This document shows positions 6,764-12,685 of a stretch of 64,000 bases of DNA, in pieces. Source of the stretch: a virus (taxonomy: Duplodnaviria; Caudoviricetes); the IMG/VR virus record IMGVR_UViG_3300046318_000439, positions 64,001 to 128,000 of that record, one strand, 5' to 3'. Both the position numbers and the translations under genes were made by a program. Numbering within the stretch: position 1 is the stretch's first letter; each line of letters begins with the position of its first letter. The notes below the pieces were generated by a model. That model saw only the letters and a list, made by a program, of their open reading frames with translations. It was not told where the DNA came from and did not search any database.

Positions 6764-7213
6764 ATGAGTTATAAAGGTTTCTTTAAGCCCAAAAACCCCA
6801 GTCGATATAAAGGCGATCCTACAAACATAATTTACAGAAGTTCGTGGGAGTTTAAGCTTATGACCTATTTAGACGTCCACCCAGACGTAATAGAATGGTC
6901 TAGCGAAGAGTTTTGCATACCTTATAGATCTCCCATTGATGGTAAGATACATCGTTATTTTCCAGATTTCCATGTGAAAAAGAAAAATGCAACTGGTGAA
7001 ACGGAAACAGTGGTCATTGAAGTAAAGCCAAAAAACCAAGTAGTTCCACCAAATGTAGTTAAAACTAAAACAAACAAACCAACAAAACGATATATTAGAG
7101 AAGTTATGACATACGGTGTAAATGAAGCAAAATGGAAAGCGGCCAAAGCGTTTTGCGCTGACCGTAAATGGAAGTTTTTAATAATGACCGAATCTGAATT
7201 AGGAATAAAATAA
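6764..7213 (+). CDS. gp4: Head completion protein gp4
   Basis: YKGDPTNIIYRSSWE, WSSEEFCIPY.SPIDGKIHRYFPDF, IEVKP, VNEAKWKAA. Confidence 0.95.
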   Translation: MSYKGFFKPKNPSRYKGDPTNIIYRSSWEFKLMTYLDVHPDVIEWSSEEFCIPYRSPIDGKIHRYFPDFHVKKKNATGETETVVIEVKPKNQVVPPNVVKTKTNKPTKRYIREVMTYGVNEAKWKAAKAFCADRKWKFLIMTESELGIK

Positions 7214-7812
7214 TGGCGATTGCAGTTTTCGAGAATATTCTAAAACAGGCTCAAAAAGCTAATGTGCTAACTAACAAGGCTGAGGATGCTACTCAATGGC
7301 TTCGGAATAAGGCCATGACGTTTAGAAACGTCGATCCAAACCGCGTCATTAAACAAGGCATGGATAAATCTGTAATGCAGGTTAAACCTGGCCAGATGTT
7401 CTTGTTTCAATATGATCCTAAGTTAAAAGATAAGCTTCCATACCACGATCGGTTTCCGTTGGTATTTCCTATCAGGCGCAGTGGAGATGGATTCTATGGA
7501 CTGAACATGCATTATCTTCCAATCCCGTTCAGAGCAATATTGATGGATAATCTATATCAATTAATTAATAATTATAAAAACGACGAGACGACAAAACTCC
7601 GTCTAACATACAACCTACTTGCAGGTACTGCTAAATTTAGGTACTACAAACCATGTTTAAAATACTACCTAAATAGCCAGGTACAAAGTAAATTTATATA
7701 CATTGCCCCAAACGAATGGGACCTTGCTCTATTCCTTCCATTACATAGATTCCAGGGTGCAACAGCTGCTGCAGTGTATAAAGATAGCAAGAAAATAATA
7801 ACAGGTAGATAA
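7213..7812 (+). CDS. gp2: DNA end protector gp2
   Basis: GQMFLFQYDPKLKDKLPYHDRFPLVFPI, GLNMHYLP motifs. Confidence 0.93.
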   Translation: MAIAVFENILKQAQKANVLTNKAEDATQWLRNKAMTFRNVDPNRVIKQGMDKSVMQVKPGQMFLFQYDPKLKDKLPYHDRFPLVFPIRRSGDGFYGLNMHYLPIPFRAILMDNLYQLINNYKNDETTKLRLTYNLLAGTAKFRYYKPCLKYYLNSQVQSKFIYIAPNEWDLALFLPLHRFQGATAAAVYKDSKKIITGR

Positions 7813-7813
7813 T

Positions 7814-8698
7814 ATGGCCAAAGCCGCTGACTTCTTCACAAAAGCTAGAAATGTAGCCGGAACTGCAAATGCACTCCGGGAATTCTTGCCAGATGAAATC
7901 ACAAATGGTATCGATTCCATCTTTGGCGGTAACATTCTACCAGTTGGAGCTCGTAAAGGAATCAGCGGTTTCAGATCCACCATTAATAACTTAAATGGAC
8001 TGCAAAGACCGAATCACTTTTACGTAACAATACCGAACCCTCCTATACTGCAGGGAGATATTGGTCCCATCTTATTGCCGTTTTTAACGGAGTCAGCAAC
8101 TATTCCTGGCGTATCTTTAGCAACATCAGATGTTAGACGTTACGGATATGGTCCAACCGAGAAAAAGCCGTATGCTCCTATATTTGTTGACCAACAGATG
8201 ACCTTTTTAGGAGACGCGTCTGGTGTTGTTCATAAGTTCTTTTATAAGTGGATGAACGGTATTGTAAAATATGATGAGTTCCCTCGAGGTAGACCAGGAT
8301 TCAATGGAGTACGTCCTTTTGAGGTTGAATATAAGCGCCAATACGCCGTCGACATTATAATCACAGCCATTGATGAAGTCGATCGGAAGATAATGGAAGT
8401 AAAGCTGTATGATGCGTTCCCAATCGCTATGGGTGATATAGGGTTGAGTTGGAACCAAAATGACAGCTACGTCGGTATACCAATCACGTTTTCTTACTAT
8501 AAATGGAAACGTACAGATATTAGTATCAATCTTGATGAATTAATTGGAGAAGACATTTCTCCAGTACAAAGATTGTTGAAGGCAGGAACTGCAATCCAGA
8601 CTCTTGCTAAAATTAAAAAGCCCAACAACGTTGCAGATATTCTCAACGTCGTCAACAATAGTAAAGTTGCTGTTGGAAGCTTAGGAGGTTTCTTTTAA
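7814..8698 (+). CDS. gp54: Baseplate tail-tube initiator (gp54/gp19-like)
   Basis: RPNHFYVTI, ESATIPG, YGPTEKKPY, LYDAFPIAMGDI motifs; position before gp26. Confidence 0.75.
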   Translation: MAKAADFFTKARNVAGTANALREFLPDEITNGIDSIFGGNILPVGARKGISGFRSTINNLNGLQRPNHFYVTIPNPPILQGDIGPILLPFLTESATIPGVSLATSDVRRYGYGPTEKKPYAPIFVDQQMTFLGDASGVVHKFFYKWMNGIVKYDEFPRGRPGFNGVRPFEVEYKRQYAVDIIITAIDEVDRKIMEVKLYDAFPIAMGDIGLSWNQNDSYVGIPITFSYYKWKRTDISINLDELIGEDISPVQRLLKAGTAIQTLAKIKKPNNVADILNVVNNSKVAVGSLGGFF

Positions 8699-8707
8699 GG
8701 AGTTATT

Positions 8708-9418
8708 ATGGCATTACCAAAAATCAGTCACCCAATATTTGAATTGACATTACCATCCACCAAACAAACAATTCGCTACAGACCTTTCTTGGTCAAAGAA
8801 GAAAAGATTCTTCTAACTGCTCAAGCATCTGGCGAACCGCAAGACATTATCTTATCAATTAGACAAGTAATCAATAACTGTATTCTAACAGAAGGAATTG
8901 ATATTGAAGACTTAACAACATTTGATTTAGAGTATTTGTTTATTAAAATTAGAGCTAAATCTGTTAACAATATTATAAGTTTGACATATAGAGATTTAGA
9001 AGATGAAAAGCGTTATGATGTAGAAGTTGATCTAGATCAAATTGAAATGAAAGAAGATCCGACTCACACAAATATAGTGGATGTCGGTAACGGCATTTCT
9101 TTGACAATGCGTTATCCAAAAGCAGACATTGCATCATCATTAAAGGCTGTTGATGGTGAACTAGATGTATTCTTTGAAGTTTTGAGAAACTGCATTGCTA
9201 CAATTAATGACGGTGAGCAAACGCACGTTACGAGCGACTATGGCTCCGAAGAGATGGATGAATTTATTCAATCCCTTGACGTGAATGCATTTAAGAAGAT
9301 TCAAGAGTTTTTTTCAACTATGCCTAAACTGTACTATGAAGTCAAATATACTAATAGCTTAGGTAATGAAAAGGTCATCCCACTGACTACATTAAATGAT
9401 TTTTTTACGTTGGGCTGA
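8708..9418 (+). CDS. gp26: Baseplate hub assembly protein gp26
   Basis: MALPKI..P.FELTLPST...IRYRPFLVKEEKILL, FDLEYLFIKIRAKSV. Confidence 0.92.
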   Translation: MALPKISHPIFELTLPSTKQTIRYRPFLVKEEKILLTAQASGEPQDIILSIRQVINNCILTEGIDIEDLTTFDLEYLFIKIRAKSVNNIISLTYRDLEDEKRYDVEVDLDQIEMKEDPTHTNIVDVGNGISLTMRYPKADIASSLKAVDGELDVFFEVLRNCIATINDGEQTHVTSDYGSEEMDEFIQSLDVNAFKKIQEFFSTMPKLYYEVKYTNSLGNEKVIPLTTLNDFFTLG

Positions 9419-9594
9419 GTCATAACTCATTAGCAAACTACTATACGCTAATATTCAGTTTGGCTCAGCATCATAAATGGTCAGTGACAGAGATAGAAGA
9501 TATGATACCTTTTGAGCGTGATCTTTATGTGGATATGTTGAAGGATTATTTAGAAAAAGAACAAGAGAGATTAAAATCTAAAGGACATGGCTGA
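9400..9594 (+). CDS. gp51: Baseplate hub assembly protein gp51 (open frame without ATG; probable -1 frameshift fusion to gp26)
   Basis: Not in ORF track; frame reads FFYVGLSHNSLANYYTLIFSLAQHHKWSVTEIEDMIPFERDLYVDMLKDYLEKEQERLKSKGHG*; in-frame TGA at 9397-9399 bounds it upstream. Confidence 0.88.
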   Translation, partial: FFYVGLSHNSLANYYTLIFSLAQHHKWSVTEIEDMIPFERDLYVDMLKDYLEKEQERLKSKGHG

Positions 9595-10894
9595 TACAAA
9601 GACCACTGCAATGAACGAAGCTAAGGATGCTGCTTTAGACAGCATCGGCTTCGTTTTGTCTGCTACAAAAACTCAATCAGTTCAATTAAAGAAATCGTCA
9701 CTGCTTGCAGCACGTAACGTCGTAGCGGTGCGTAAAAATTTAGTATCTCTCGTAACTACTTTTAAAACATATCAAAATACAATCAAGCAAATACAAGCCG
9801 TCGTTGGTAAAGGCGGAGATGCTAATAGCAAGGTATCTAAAATTAGTGGCATACTTCAATCTGGAGGAGATGCATACAAAGAAAAAGAAGCAGAGCAAGA
9901 AGACAAACCAAAAGCCACCGAATTGGTGAAGGGCATTGGTAAGAATGTAGCTACTGCTGCAGGCTCTGCATTAGCCCTAGCCATTCCATTCTTATTGAGT
10001 CCAGAAATGCGCGAAATGTTGATGAGTTTCTTTAGCGGTTTCTTGGAAGGTTTGGGATTAGGTAAAGATGCCCTGGATAAAGTTAAGCTCGGATTCGGAA
10101 TAGCTGCTGGTATATTGATAGCTTATTTCTCTGCATCAGTTATATCAAGTATAGCAGGGGCATTCATGCAAATGCAAAAACTAGCGCAGGTGTTGGGATT
10201 GGCTGGTGAGGTCGTAAGCGCTGAGAAAACCAAAATAGATACAGAGAAAGATAAAGTCAAGCAAGCAGGCAAGGGAACTAAAGCAGAGTTGGATAGTGCC
10301 AAAAAGGACATGAAGAAGAATAGCAAGGGCAATCTTCTAAAACGACTAGGAGTGCTTAAAAATACACTAGGTCCTAAACTATTGAAGTTGGGCAAAAACT
10401 TTCTTAAAGCACTACCAATAGTTGGCACAGTTTTAGGCATAGGACTCATTTTGTATGATTTGTTTGATATAGGTAAAGATGTTTGGAATTTCCTTAAAGG
10501 GGAAGAAACGACGGACGCTGAAGATAAGCAAAACACAGAGCAAGAAGATGCAGCTCCTGTTTCTGCTACATCTGCTCCAGCGTCAGCTGCTGCCTCTGCC
10601 CCTGCAGCAGCTGAGGCAGAAATAAAAGCACCAACAAGTAATACATCTGCAGCAGAAATGACTTCAGCTAGCTCTGCTCCCGTTGCAGCTGAACCAGCCG
10701 ATACCCCTCGCGCTGAAGGTATGGCCATACAAGAAAGTTCCGTAAAGGTAGAGCAAGCTGATTCAGATCTTGCTCGTACTGCTGGGGGAGTAAATATTAC
10801 TACAATAGACAATTCTACAACAATAATGTCCAGCCCTAAATCAGCTACCGCACCTCCTTCAACGCTAGTATATTCAGTAACGGTAGGAATGTAA
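9587..10894 (+). CDS. Tape-measure/gp29-like hub protein, part 1
   Basis: Ala/Gly/Lys-rich helical protein with hydrophobic segments directly after gp26-gp51. Confidence 0.55.
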   Translation: MADTKTTAMNEAKDAALDSIGFVLSATKTQSVQLKKSSLLAARNVVAVRKNLVSLVTTFKTYQNTIKQIQAVVGKGGDANSKVSKISGILQSGGDAYKEKEAEQEDKPKATELVKGIGKNVATAAGSALALAIPFLLSPEMREMLMSFFSGFLEGLGLGKDALDKVKLGFGIAAGILIAYFSASVISSIAGAFMQMQKLAQVLGLAGEVVSAEKTKIDTEKDKVKQAGKGTKAELDSAKKDMKKNSKGNLLKRLGVLKNTLGPKLLKLGKNFLKALPIVGTVLGIGLILYDLFDIGKDVWNFLKGEETTDAEDKQNTEQEDAAPVSATSAPASAAASAPAAAEAEIKAPTSNTSAAEMTSASSAPVAAEPADTPRAEGMAIQESSVKVEQADSDLARTAGGVNITTIDNSTTIMSSPKSATAPPSTLVYSVTVGM

Positions 10895-10897
10895 TAA

Positions 10898-12685
10898 ATG
10901 GCTAACAAAAAGAATCTTCCTAAACTATCCAAACGCACAGCAAATTTGGAAGCATGGCTCGATGAAGTTACAAAGAAACACAACTACGTTGCCAAAGAAG
11001 TGGAGTATGCACATAGCGATCTAGCATTGGTTAGAGGCAGACTTGATAAAATTGAGAAGCATGAGGAAAAGACTGATAAGAGCATCGAGGAGATGCGCGG
11101 TATTATCAATGCAGTTAACAAAAAGGCAGGTTTATTAACTAATGTTGCTGCTAAGAATGCAGGTAAGGTAAAAACTGCTGAGCAAGGTGCAACAGGGAAA
11201 CCCGACACATCCAACACAATAGCTGCATTAACTAGTTCTATGAATATAATTGCTACTTCATTAGGAATAATGAATAGTAGCCTATCGAAAGCTTTAGGTG
11301 TAAAGATGGCTCCTATGGGAGCTCAGAAAGAAGAAGCTCCAGGTCCATCAGGAATCCCAGCTCCTAAAGAAGGAGAAAAAGAACAAGGTATATTTGGTCT
11401 ACTCAAAGGATTGTTCTCAAATCCTGCTGTCGTAGCTGCAATAGCTGGCATTGTATACACCGTATTGCCAAAAGAAACACAAGAACAAATTAAAGGGTTC
11501 TTGGGGGGATTCGCTGATGGTCTCGGAGAGGCTATGGGGAAGAATGAGCAAGAAGGTATGGGAGGTTTCAACACAGCCCTTAAAGCAGCTGGTATTGCAT
11601 TGACTGCATATTTTGGCGCTAAGATGATTAGCGGGGTTGCTGGTGCAATCACAACAACGCTAAAAATTGTCAAGATGATGGGTGGCGGTAAGCTAGGCAG
11701 AGGTCTTGCTGTTGCTGGAGCTGCAGCTGCAGTTGGTGGTGCTGTTGCGATGAGTGGTGGAGACGATGAAGAGGGCGGTGGCGGTGAAGCAGCTGCTGCA
11801 GGAGGAGCAGTTCCAAGTGGCGGAGATGCTGGAGGCGCTGAATCTAAACCATCTCCCGCTGGCACGAGCTTGCCTAAACCTAAAGATACAACAGCTCCTA
11901 AGGCACCCCCTGGATCATCAAGTACAGGTAGTAACGTACCAGACAATATCGATTTAAAGAGTGTAGTCAATGCTGGTTCTGGCGTTGACTTAGAAGGTCT
12001 TGACCCATCAGCCAAAAAACGTCTTGCAGGTATGGCATATGAGTACCAGCAGAAGACTGGCAAGAAACTACAAGTTAACTCTGCTTATAGAGACCCAGAA
12101 AAGCAAGCACAGCTGTATGCTAAGATAGGACCTCCCAATGCTGCCCCTCCTGGAAAGAGCTGGCACGAAAAGGGATTGGCTTTTGATATTAACTCAGCAG
12201 ATGCTAATAAAGCAGATGAGCTTGGACTCATGGCTAAGTATGGATTCAAGCGACCTGTGGCTAAAGAGCCATGGCACGTAGAATTATCTGAGACAAGAGG
12301 CGGCCCAGCATATGCTGATAATCCAGCTGCGCCTGGGGCTGCTGTTGCTGTTGCAGATAAGAGTGGTAAACCATCAATACCCGCATCAGGTAAAACCACT
12401 GCAGCAGGTGAGGTAGCATCAGCCCCAGGTGCTGGTAGCACCCCAGCCGATAGCGCTACATTAGCACAAGATAATAATAATACCGGACAACAAGTCAATA
12501 GCTTATCGCAAAATGTCAAGGATGCTGCTAGGCCTGGATCTTCCACTTCTATGGCAAGCGTTGACAACTCACAAAAAGGTGGGACAGGAAGTCAAGAAGC
12601 AGCTCCTCAACAACCTATCCCATCACCTATTGCTTCAAGAGGCTCACTAGGAGCCTTCACAAAACATAGTACAGCTTACGCTTAA
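10898..12685 (+). CDS. Tape-measure/gp29-like protein with M15 (VanY-like) peptidase domain
   Basis: NSAYRDPEKQAQLY...APPGKSWHEKGLAFDI...EPWHVE Zn-peptidase motifs in an Ala/Gly-rich scaffold. Confidence 0.75.
   Translation: MANKKNLPKLSKRTANLEAWLDEVTKKHNYVAKEVEYAHSDLALVRGRLDKIEKHEEKTDKSIEEMRGIINAVNKKAGLLTNVAAKNAGKVKTAEQGATGKPDTSNTIAALTSSMNIIATSLGIMNSSLSKALGVKMAPMGAQKEEAPGPSGIPAPKEGEKEQGIFGLLKGLFSNPAVVAAIAGIVYTVLPKETQEQIKGFLGGFADGLGEAMGKNEQEGMGGFNTALKAAGIALTAYFGAKMISGVAGAITTTLKIVKMMGGGKLGRGLAVAGAAAAVGGAVAMSGGDDEEGGGGEAAAAGGAVPSGGDAGGAESKPSPAGTSLPKPKDTTAPKAPPGSSSTGSNVPDNIDLKSVVNAGSGVDLEGLDPSAKKRLAGMAYEYQQKTGKKLQVNSAYRDPEKQAQLYAKIGPPNAAPPGKSWHEKGLAFDINSADANKADELGLMAKYGFKRPVAKEPWHVELSETRGGPAYADNPAAPGAAVAVADKSGKPSIPASGKTTAAGEVASAPGAGSTPADSATLAQDNNNTGQQVNSLSQNVKDAARPGSSTSMASVDNSQKGGTGSQEAAPQQPIPSPIASRGSLGAFTKHSTAYA

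Follow-up and report, generated by a model that had tools for sequence, protein, structure and literature searches.

A conserved slippery heptamer at the end of gene 26 points to −1 frameshifting into gp51 in T4-like phages

Here we describe the junction of genes 26 and 51 in a 64,000-nucleotide stretch of viral DNA (the window; positions 64,001 to 128,000 of IMG/VR record IMGVR_UViG_3300046318_000439), at which a programmed −1 ribosomal frameshift very probably joins the end of gp26 to a short 'gp51' reading frame, yielding a gp26-51 fusion protein. The record comprises 202,272 bases, is complete with terminal repeats and represents a freshwater T4-like phage; the sequencing runs containing the stretch are all freshwater or aquatic metagenomes, with no RNA run among them. 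In T4 itself, gp26 and gp51 are hub assembly chaperones, the latter being required for assembly and missing from the particle (Leiman et al. 2010, PMC3004832).

Results

The proposed slip site in the window

A −1 frameshift at this position had been proposed in an earlier note on the same DNA. We inspected the junction directly, and the features that matter here are the following:

8708-9418, plus strand: gp26 homologue with a zero-frame product of 236 amino acids (PF12322, hub/tape-measure assembly chaperone family)
9397-9399, plus strand: TGA shutting the −1 frame directly before the slip site, as read from the sequence
9400-9406, plus strand: slippery heptamer T_TTT_TTT, codons GAT TTT TTT, X_XXY_YYZ in the gp26 phase
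9406-9594, plus strand: −1 frame extension of 62 codons plus TGA, the 'gp51' tail (evidence from phrog_634, hhalign and codon-position entropy)

The 3' end of gp26 reads GAT (from 9398) TTT TTT ACG TTG GGC TGA (9416-9418), and its run of seven Ts forms a T_TTT_TTT heptamer in the X_XXY_YYZ phase, precisely as the earlier note had it. The claims concerning the second frame likewise proved correct. Shut upstream by the TGA, the −1 frame is open from 9400 to a TGA at 9592-9594 (64 codons); its start-like codons are CTG 9415, TTG 9460, GTG 9484 and, as the first ATG, 9502, and upstream of the conserved HNSL..YY segment this frame contains no ATG, GTG or TTG. A conceptual −1 slip joins both frames and results in a product reading ...LNDFFYVGLSHNSLANYY... 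(junction peptide ...LNDFFYVGLSHNSL...), which comprises 295 amino acids, that is gp26 residues 1-233 followed by 62 residues. Residues 2-61 of the −1 open reading frame (ORF) match phrog_634, 'baseplate hub assembly catalyst' (E 1.2e-24). As this homology begins at residue 2, the homologous part starts on the T run and leaves no space for a start codon. A homopolymer sequencing error, which the note had named as a possible source of the run, is excluded, since the T7 site is identical in contigs of three independent freshwater runs (0 differences, 0 gaps).

The zero-frame product is a member of PF12322 (T4_baseplate; E 1.3e-55, 189 bits at a cut-off of 24.5), its residues 9-233 covering profile positions 2-218 of 219. 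Its residues 1-235 match positions 5-234 of the 282 positions of phrog_150, which is also where T4 gp26 ends. No further PF12322 gene is present in the 202-kb genome of the phage. The junction thus has the organization of a G/GT-type pair, i.e. overlapping ORFs of which the second is startless, lies in the −1 frame and is joined to the first at an in-phase X_XXY_YYZ heptamer.

Conservation of heptamer, frame and spacing

The same arrangement was found in all of 85 loci with a complete tail. This set consists of the window, 75 of 80 IMG/VR loci that were fetched (chosen by the window gp26 at 39-69% identity; the other five are incomplete) and nine isolates, namely S-ShM2, S-SRM01, S-RSM4, KVP40, Vibrio phage D479, Ochrobactrum phage OC, Rhizobium phage RL2RES, Sinorhizobium phage phiM7 and Agrobacterium phage OLIVR6, which come from Kyanoviridae, Schizotequatrovirus, Pootjesviridae, Emdodecavirus and Oliverocinquevirus. 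Each locus carries a T_TTT_TTN heptamer in the gp26 phase (last base T in 49, C in 35 and G in one), followed by a tail in the −1 frame relative to gp26, and in each the tblastn alignment of the tail begins at the Phe-Phe dipeptide. Heptamer and phase are invariant across 44 clusters that share less than 60% gp26 identity. An alignment of 72 distinct sequences is gap-free, and the six Ts are its sole run of invariant columns. Spacing is fixed as well, there being no insertion or deletion between Phe-Phe and the H..L..YY motif in any locus. The position of the zero-frame stop is variable (0, 1, 2, 3 or 8 codons past the heptamer).

The choice of synonymous codons is particularly informative. 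The codon preceding the T run always ends in T (GAT, AAT, AGT, TCT or GCT, encoding Asp, Asn, Ser or Ala), and the first Phe codon is always TTT. Taking one member per cluster and the codon usage of the same genes (TTT 65%, GAT 75%), the chance of finding both choices fixed over the 44 clusters is about 1e-15. The gp26 genes of this set encode 87 Phe-Phe dipeptides elsewhere. Of these, 72 begin with TTC and only three give rise to the heptamer, whereas all 85 loci have it at the junction (Fisher p 3e-46). By this measure, slippery runs are avoided within gp26 and retained at its end.

Start codons and selection on the tail

Any start codon for separate synthesis of the tail would have to lie ahead of the conserved motif. 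In this segment an ATG is available in 15 of the 85 loci, GTG or TTG only in 12, CTG or ATH only in 53, and none of these in five; a canonical start is accordingly absent from most. In 22 of the 79 loci listed, the window included, a stop abuts the heptamer in the −1 frame with 0 open codons upstream, which makes an upstream start of the tail impossible in these loci. Initiation at CTG 9415, which according to the earlier note would have spoken against a slip, does not hold in general: the corresponding column of 77 distinct sequences contains CTG in 35, CTC in 13, ATG in 11, CTA in eight, TTG and CTT in three each, TTA in two and other codons in two, so that 26 of the 77 have CTC, CTA, CTT or TTA. 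The position is, in other words, either Leu, for which each of the six codons is used, or Met, as would be expected of a hydrophobic residue inside a protein rather than of a general start.

The three −1 codons ahead of this column are also conserved, encoding Tyr, Arg, Leu or Gln, then an aliphatic residue (by many different codons) and then Gly or Ala. Column entropies for the three codon positions are 1.16, 0.85 and 1.44 just after the heptamer and 1.09, 0.67 and 1.54 deeper in the tail, and coding periodicity and residue conservation of the tail persist across families with less than 40% identity. These patterns indicate that selection acts on the −1 reading from the heptamer onwards and does not act on the zero-frame end. 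Taken together, the comparative predictions of a −1 slip, i.e. phase, −1 frame, fixed spacing, tails that are mostly startless and a coding pattern in the −1 codons ahead of the candidate CTG/ATG, all held in the survey of relatives, which supports the interpretation given in the earlier note.

As regards existing annotations, the gp51 features of S-RSM4 (L003:1564-1698), Vibrio phage D479 (L087:1303-1395), Ochrobactrum phage OC (L088:1249-1389) and OLIVR6 (L091:1255-1395) begin at an internal TTG or ATG, thereby dropping the HN.L..YY segment. Many cyanophage records, including those of S-WAM1, S-BM3, S-CAM4, ACG-2014j and S-H9-1, have no gp51 feature beneath the tblastn match.

Colinearity of the predicted fusion with T4 gp51

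Comparison with T4 assigns the two predicted products to the two T4 proteins. Residues 1-201 of T4 gp51 (249 amino acids) match PF12322 over its full length (E 3.9e-52), and the protein reaches position 280 of the phrog_150 profile, whereas T4 gp26 and the window gp26 stop at 234-235. Its last 59 residues match the short-gp51 family phrog_634 (E 4e-12). By these matches, T4 gp51 is a gp26-type domain followed by the same tail. A hidden Markov model (HMM) built from the conceptual −1 products of 77 loci aligns with T4 gp51 residues 113-245 without a gap over the junction (...dFFyvalshnsLenyy... in the model versus ...DVFKLLVNPDEIFTFY... in T4). In T4 gp26 (208 amino acids), no more than a few residues follow the protein's own Phe-Phe, the gene reading ...TTC TTT GAG TTA CTA TAA.

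Profile-profile comparison by hhalign gave the same picture. The gp26 profile of the window group (A2) aligned to columns 12-202 of a profile of 39 long gp51 proteins (A4; probability 97.8%, E 8e-13), and the tail profile (A3) aligned to columns 200-250 of the same profile (probability 95.3%, E 2e-8), so the two abut on the same Phe of T4-type gp51, where the predicted slip point falls. Between the two conceptual products, only the −1 fusion matches the architecture of T4-type long gp51 with its tail F..Y...[LF]....YS...I..MIP.ER. The colinearity of the profiles thus gives the predicted fusion the architecture of gp51 and the zero-frame product that of gp26. The domain PF28602 was seen on long gp51 proteins. 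Sequence searches of the PDB with gp26, T4 gp51 and profile A2 returned nothing at E up to 10. A protein homologue search that matches on shared words returned no naturally fused longer forms of the short tail, which is weak evidence.

Phages with a separate long gp51, Aeh1 and Cygsa01

As stated in the earlier note, gp26 and gp51 are separate genes in T4. Two PF12322 genes are present there and divergently transcribed, as compared to one in each of ten tail-type records searched, i.e. the window's genome, G001, G002 (67%-complete; both IMG/VR), S-ShM2, S-RSM4, Aeh1, KVP40, Ochrobactrum phage OC, phiM7 and Cygsa01. Six phages were found to carry a long gp51 as a gene of its own beside gene 26, namely T4, JS98, a T4 relative from IMG/VR (L097), Acinetobacter phage AM101, the RB49-like phage KFS-EC and Aeromonas phage asfd_1h. 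In all six, gene 26 ends without T_TTT_TTY, the sequence being GAG TTC TTT in T4 and JS98. Together with the composition of T4 gp51 from a gp26-type domain and the tail, this adds weight to the proposed slip. When T4 gp26 was used to search for related loci, all those returned were near-identical relatives of T4.

Among T4-like phages, Aeh1 alone has been reported to lack gp51 (PMC3037559). Its locus (L099:2170-2380), which we read separately as an 86th locus with short tail and heptamer, contains GAT TTT TTC GAC TGA and then a startless, unannotated −1 tail with the PFER motif.

The earlier note had also held that relatives with an ATG-led gp51 and no slippery site would count against the slip. 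Such a case does exist, confined to one distant lineage. In the pf16-like Pseudomonas phage Cygsa01 (L100:1780-1982), the tail lies in the −1 frame, gp26 ends AGC ATT TTC ACC TAATG without a heptamer, and the ATG of gp51 overlaps the gp26 stop. This was the only locus seen that has a −1 tail and no heptamer. RL2RES has both, T_TTT_TTG and an ATG.

Sequence context of the heptamer

An element resembling a Shine-Dalgarno (SD) sequence, GAGG or GGAG, is located 10-15 nucleotides upstream of the heptamer in 17 of 30 T_TTT_TTC loci versus 2 of 44 T_TTT_TTT loci, the background being 0.045 per 16 nucleotides. It is found in L001, L002, L051, L063, L089 and others, coincides with conserved Glu/Arg-Gly-Leu codons and is absent from the window.

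Gene neighbourhood

The junction is flanked by the following genes:

7213-7812, plus strand: DNA-end-protector homologue
7814-8698, plus strand: tail-tube-family gene, 294 amino acids (PF23849 Phage_TTP_2, E 1.6e-8; phrog_45 'tail tube', E 1.5e-33)
9587-10894, plus strand: tape-measure-like gene, 435 amino acids, whose ATG overlaps the stop of the tail (ATGGCTGA)
10898-12685, plus strand: second tape-measure-like gene, 595 amino acids, with a VanY/M15 peptidase domain (PF02557 VanY, E 2.4e-8, residues 368-438; phrog_13118)

In KVP40, S-SRM01, Aeh1 and rhizobiophages, the upstream gene that adjoins gp26 is annotated as tail tube or gp54. The two downstream genes are called tape-measure-like on the grounds of their composition and of an ESM Atlas match, which places the 435-residue protein near the PF25671 T4_Tape_measure cluster (score 0.91) and serves as a lead only. 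Neither Pfam nor NCBIfam gave a tape-measure match for them, and T4 gp29 found no match anywhere in the phage's own genome.

Discussion

Proposed mechanism

According to the mechanism proposed here, most ribosomes would stop at the TGA at the end of gp26 and produce the 236-residue short form. A minority, with Phe-tRNAs on TTT TTT, would slip back by one base on T_TTT_TTT through tandem slippage of both tRNAs and would continue with TAC GTT GGG CTG AGT CAT... up to the end of the tail. The ensuing long form would consist of the first 233 residues, shared with the short form, and the helical 'gp51' tail. Short and long form would correspond to T4 gp26 and T4 gp51, respectively. If lambda G/GT is taken as a guide, the domain common to both forms would hold the tape-measure/hub proteins whose genes follow directly downstream, and the tail, being present on few molecules, would link these proteins to another part of the phage tail.

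The likeness to T4 lies in the proteins. Both forms belong to the same PF12322 family, the short one ending after the conserved Phe-Phe and the long one adding a homologous helical tail. The difference lies in how the forms are encoded. T4 has two diverged genes (20% identity) and no slippery site, whereas in the window one gene and its −1 extension would yield both forms, with an identical shared domain.

A short gp51 is itself not new. The gp51 of cyanophages and marine vibriophages is known to be without its first ~200 residues, for which no cause was proposed (Sullivan et al. 2010, PMC3037559), and the KVP40 record notes similarity of its gp51 to the C-terminus of T4 gp51. The ORF in question is the same as the tail in the window. 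In these sources it figures as a small gene in its own right, without mention of a frameshift, whereas we propose that the missing ~200 residues come from gp26.

Relation to lambda G/GT and dnaX

The window shares with lambda G/GT a startless second ORF in the −1 frame and a zero-frame stop a few codons downstream. It may also share the gene order, in which a tube-family gene, the chaperone pair and tape-measure-like genes follow one another (tape-measure identity being judged by composition and the Atlas lead). A further likeness is that there is no strong RNA stimulator; no conserved downstream structure is known in lambda G/GT either. In 2004, Xu, Hendrix and Duda reportedly described the −1 frameshift in genes for tail assembly chaperones as conserved. 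The systems differ in that the shared part in the window, with 233 residues and extra domains, is about twice the size of gpG, and in the site itself, which is U_UUU_UUU/C in the family of the window and G_GGA_AAG in lambda.

Comparison of the gp26 profile with Pfam, member by member, detected no sequence similarity to G/GT or to known tail assembly chaperone (TAC) families. A structural resemblance is suggested by the AlphaFold model of the window gp26 (predicted local distance difference test, pLDDT, 87.6). In an exhaustive scan of model residues 1-92 against 48,161 chains, the top match was 3fgx_B (Z 7.7); the HK97 tail assembly chaperone 2ob9_B scored Z 7.5 (85 residues aligned, root mean square deviation 4.1) and YqbN (3klu_A) Z 7.2, values below the caution line of Z 8, and the next-best chain beyond the top three scored Z 4.8. 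The likeness of the gp26 N-terminal domain model to the HK97 chaperone is thus suggestive. Foldseek found nothing for the gp26 model in the PDB, and a scan with a model of T4-type gp51 (pLDDT 91.8) neither confirms nor contradicts the resemblance to a TAC, its hit list being filled by generic helix-loop-helix matches to the helical tail. No paper drawing the chaperone analogy for gp26/gp51 was found, though the analogy is present in annotation practice. For example, the GenBank record of Acinetobacter phage AM101 (L103:678-2145) labels both gp26 and gp51 'tape measure protein assembly chaperone'.

Another point of comparison is tau/gamma of E. coli dnaX, a bacterial −1 frameshift. Here too, the slip takes place on a homopolymeric heptamer and two products share their N-terminal part, and the SD-like spacing upstream of the heptamer is matched in the 17 of 30 T_TTT_TTC loci, not in the window itself. 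In dnaX, however, the slip yields a shorter protein and depends on a strong hairpin, whereas the slip proposed for the window lengthens the protein and has no conserved hairpin.

Weighing the proposal

Several observations weigh against a programmed slip. Stimulatory RNA structure is one: RNAalifold, applied to 72 loci from 12 nucleotides before to 80 nucleotides after the heptamer start, predicted no consensus pair. Single-sequence folds of the 60 nucleotides past the heptamer have a mean z of about −1. The window can form a long G-U-rich stem at 9409-9478 (GUUGGGCUGAGU with AUUCAGUUUGGC; −14.1 kcal/mol, z −1.97), which is common to a few close relatives and not conserved family-wide. The yield may also be low, as U_UUU_UUU was far less shift-prone than A_AAA_AAG in E. 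coli test constructs (PMC5009743); a weak site would at the same time fit a rare long form. Moreover, since Phe-Phe is a conserved protein motif, only the synonymous choices count as independent evidence, and the phase of the run does not. Finally, an ATG stands directly ahead of the motif in the 15 loci mentioned above, and Cygsa01 suggests that a free short gp51 can exist and may suffice in that lineage. Both routes may be in use in the 15 loci with an ATG. From the genomes compared, the slip is strongly supported as the general solution and may not be the sole one.

It appears unlikely that no recoding is involved and that a short gp51 is made alone by re-initiation at or after the gp26 stop, i.e. 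at CTG 9415, which overlaps this stop (C-TGA), or at ATG in some relatives, with the T run serving as Phe-Phe codons or as a U-rich initiation enhancer. Such a scenario would account for the ATG that 15 of the 85 loci have at tail codon 4-6, often in TAATG or TGATG overlaps, for the CTG overlapping the stop in ~35 of 77 sequences, for Cygsa01 with its ATG and without the heptamer, and for GenBank annotators giving gp51 as a separate gene. It is difficult to reconcile with a start column that is restricted to Leu/Met and has non-start codons in 26 of 77 sequences, with the five loci lacking any near-cognate start, with the residue-level conservation of −1 codons upstream of the candidate start and with the fixed Phe-Phe spacing. 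Re-initiation also leaves the fixed synonymous sites of the heptamer unexplained, as well as its being dropped in phages with a separate long gp51, and a free tail would be without the gp26-type domain that T4 gp51 carries.

Transcriptional slippage, in which RNA polymerase would add one U on the T run and the same gp26-51 fusion would arise by standard translation, is improbable. The site is a homopolymer, one inserted U would put the tail in frame, and for bacteria as well as phages it is established that transcription can slip on T/A runs (PMC5009743). However, the runs are short (six Ts in 36, seven in 46 and eight in three of the 85 loci) and show no trend towards lengthening, and the conserved element is the exact X_XXY_YYZ heptamer with a free Z (T or C). 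Efficient transcriptional slippage in bacteria needs ~8-9 or more bases in the run, as compared to seven in the window. Lastly, we give hardly any credence to the notion that gp26 alone is made, with the −1 ORF being either a remnant in decay or the artefact of a miscalled homopolymer. The ORF is indeed unannotated in many database records; nevertheless, coding periodicity and residue conservation across families below 40% identity, the identical T7 run in contigs of three independent sequencing runs and the same frame relation in 85 of 85 loci all speak against this notion. A programmed −1 ribosomal frameshift is therefore the reading that we prefer.

Implications for T4-like phages

Frameshifting in the G-T gene pair has been described as conserved among long-tailed phages 'except T4' (Atkins et al. 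2016, PMC5009743). Our literature search found no published report of a slip at gp26/gp51; its coverage was incomplete, and a report may exist. The comparative data support the view that the gp26/gp51 site joins the known class of tail-chaperone frameshifts, and does so in the one phage group thought to be without it. Going one step further, we lean towards the view that gp26/gp51 are the G/GT of the T4 superfamily, that the T_TTT_TTY slip is ancestral and still dominant in T4-like phages of cyanobacteria, vibrios, rhizobia, Aeromonas (Aeh1) and freshwater hosts, and that only the T-even branch swapped recoding for gene duplication. If so, the textbook exception would disappear, and the T4-like phages would provide a natural case in which a frameshift and a duplicated gene pair are interchangeable.

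The slip at gp26/gp51, if real, would explain why gp51 is short or 'missing' in cyanophages, KVP40 and Aeh1, and a joined coding sequence would be needed in hundreds of database records where the gp51 feature is now truncated or absent. In T4, which serves as the reference model for contractile tails, gp26 and gp51 could then be studied as a G/GT pair, that is, as an abundant form and a rare one with a tape-measure-binding domain in common. The ratio of short to long form would thereby become a testable control point in the assembly of the hub and in the determination of tail length.

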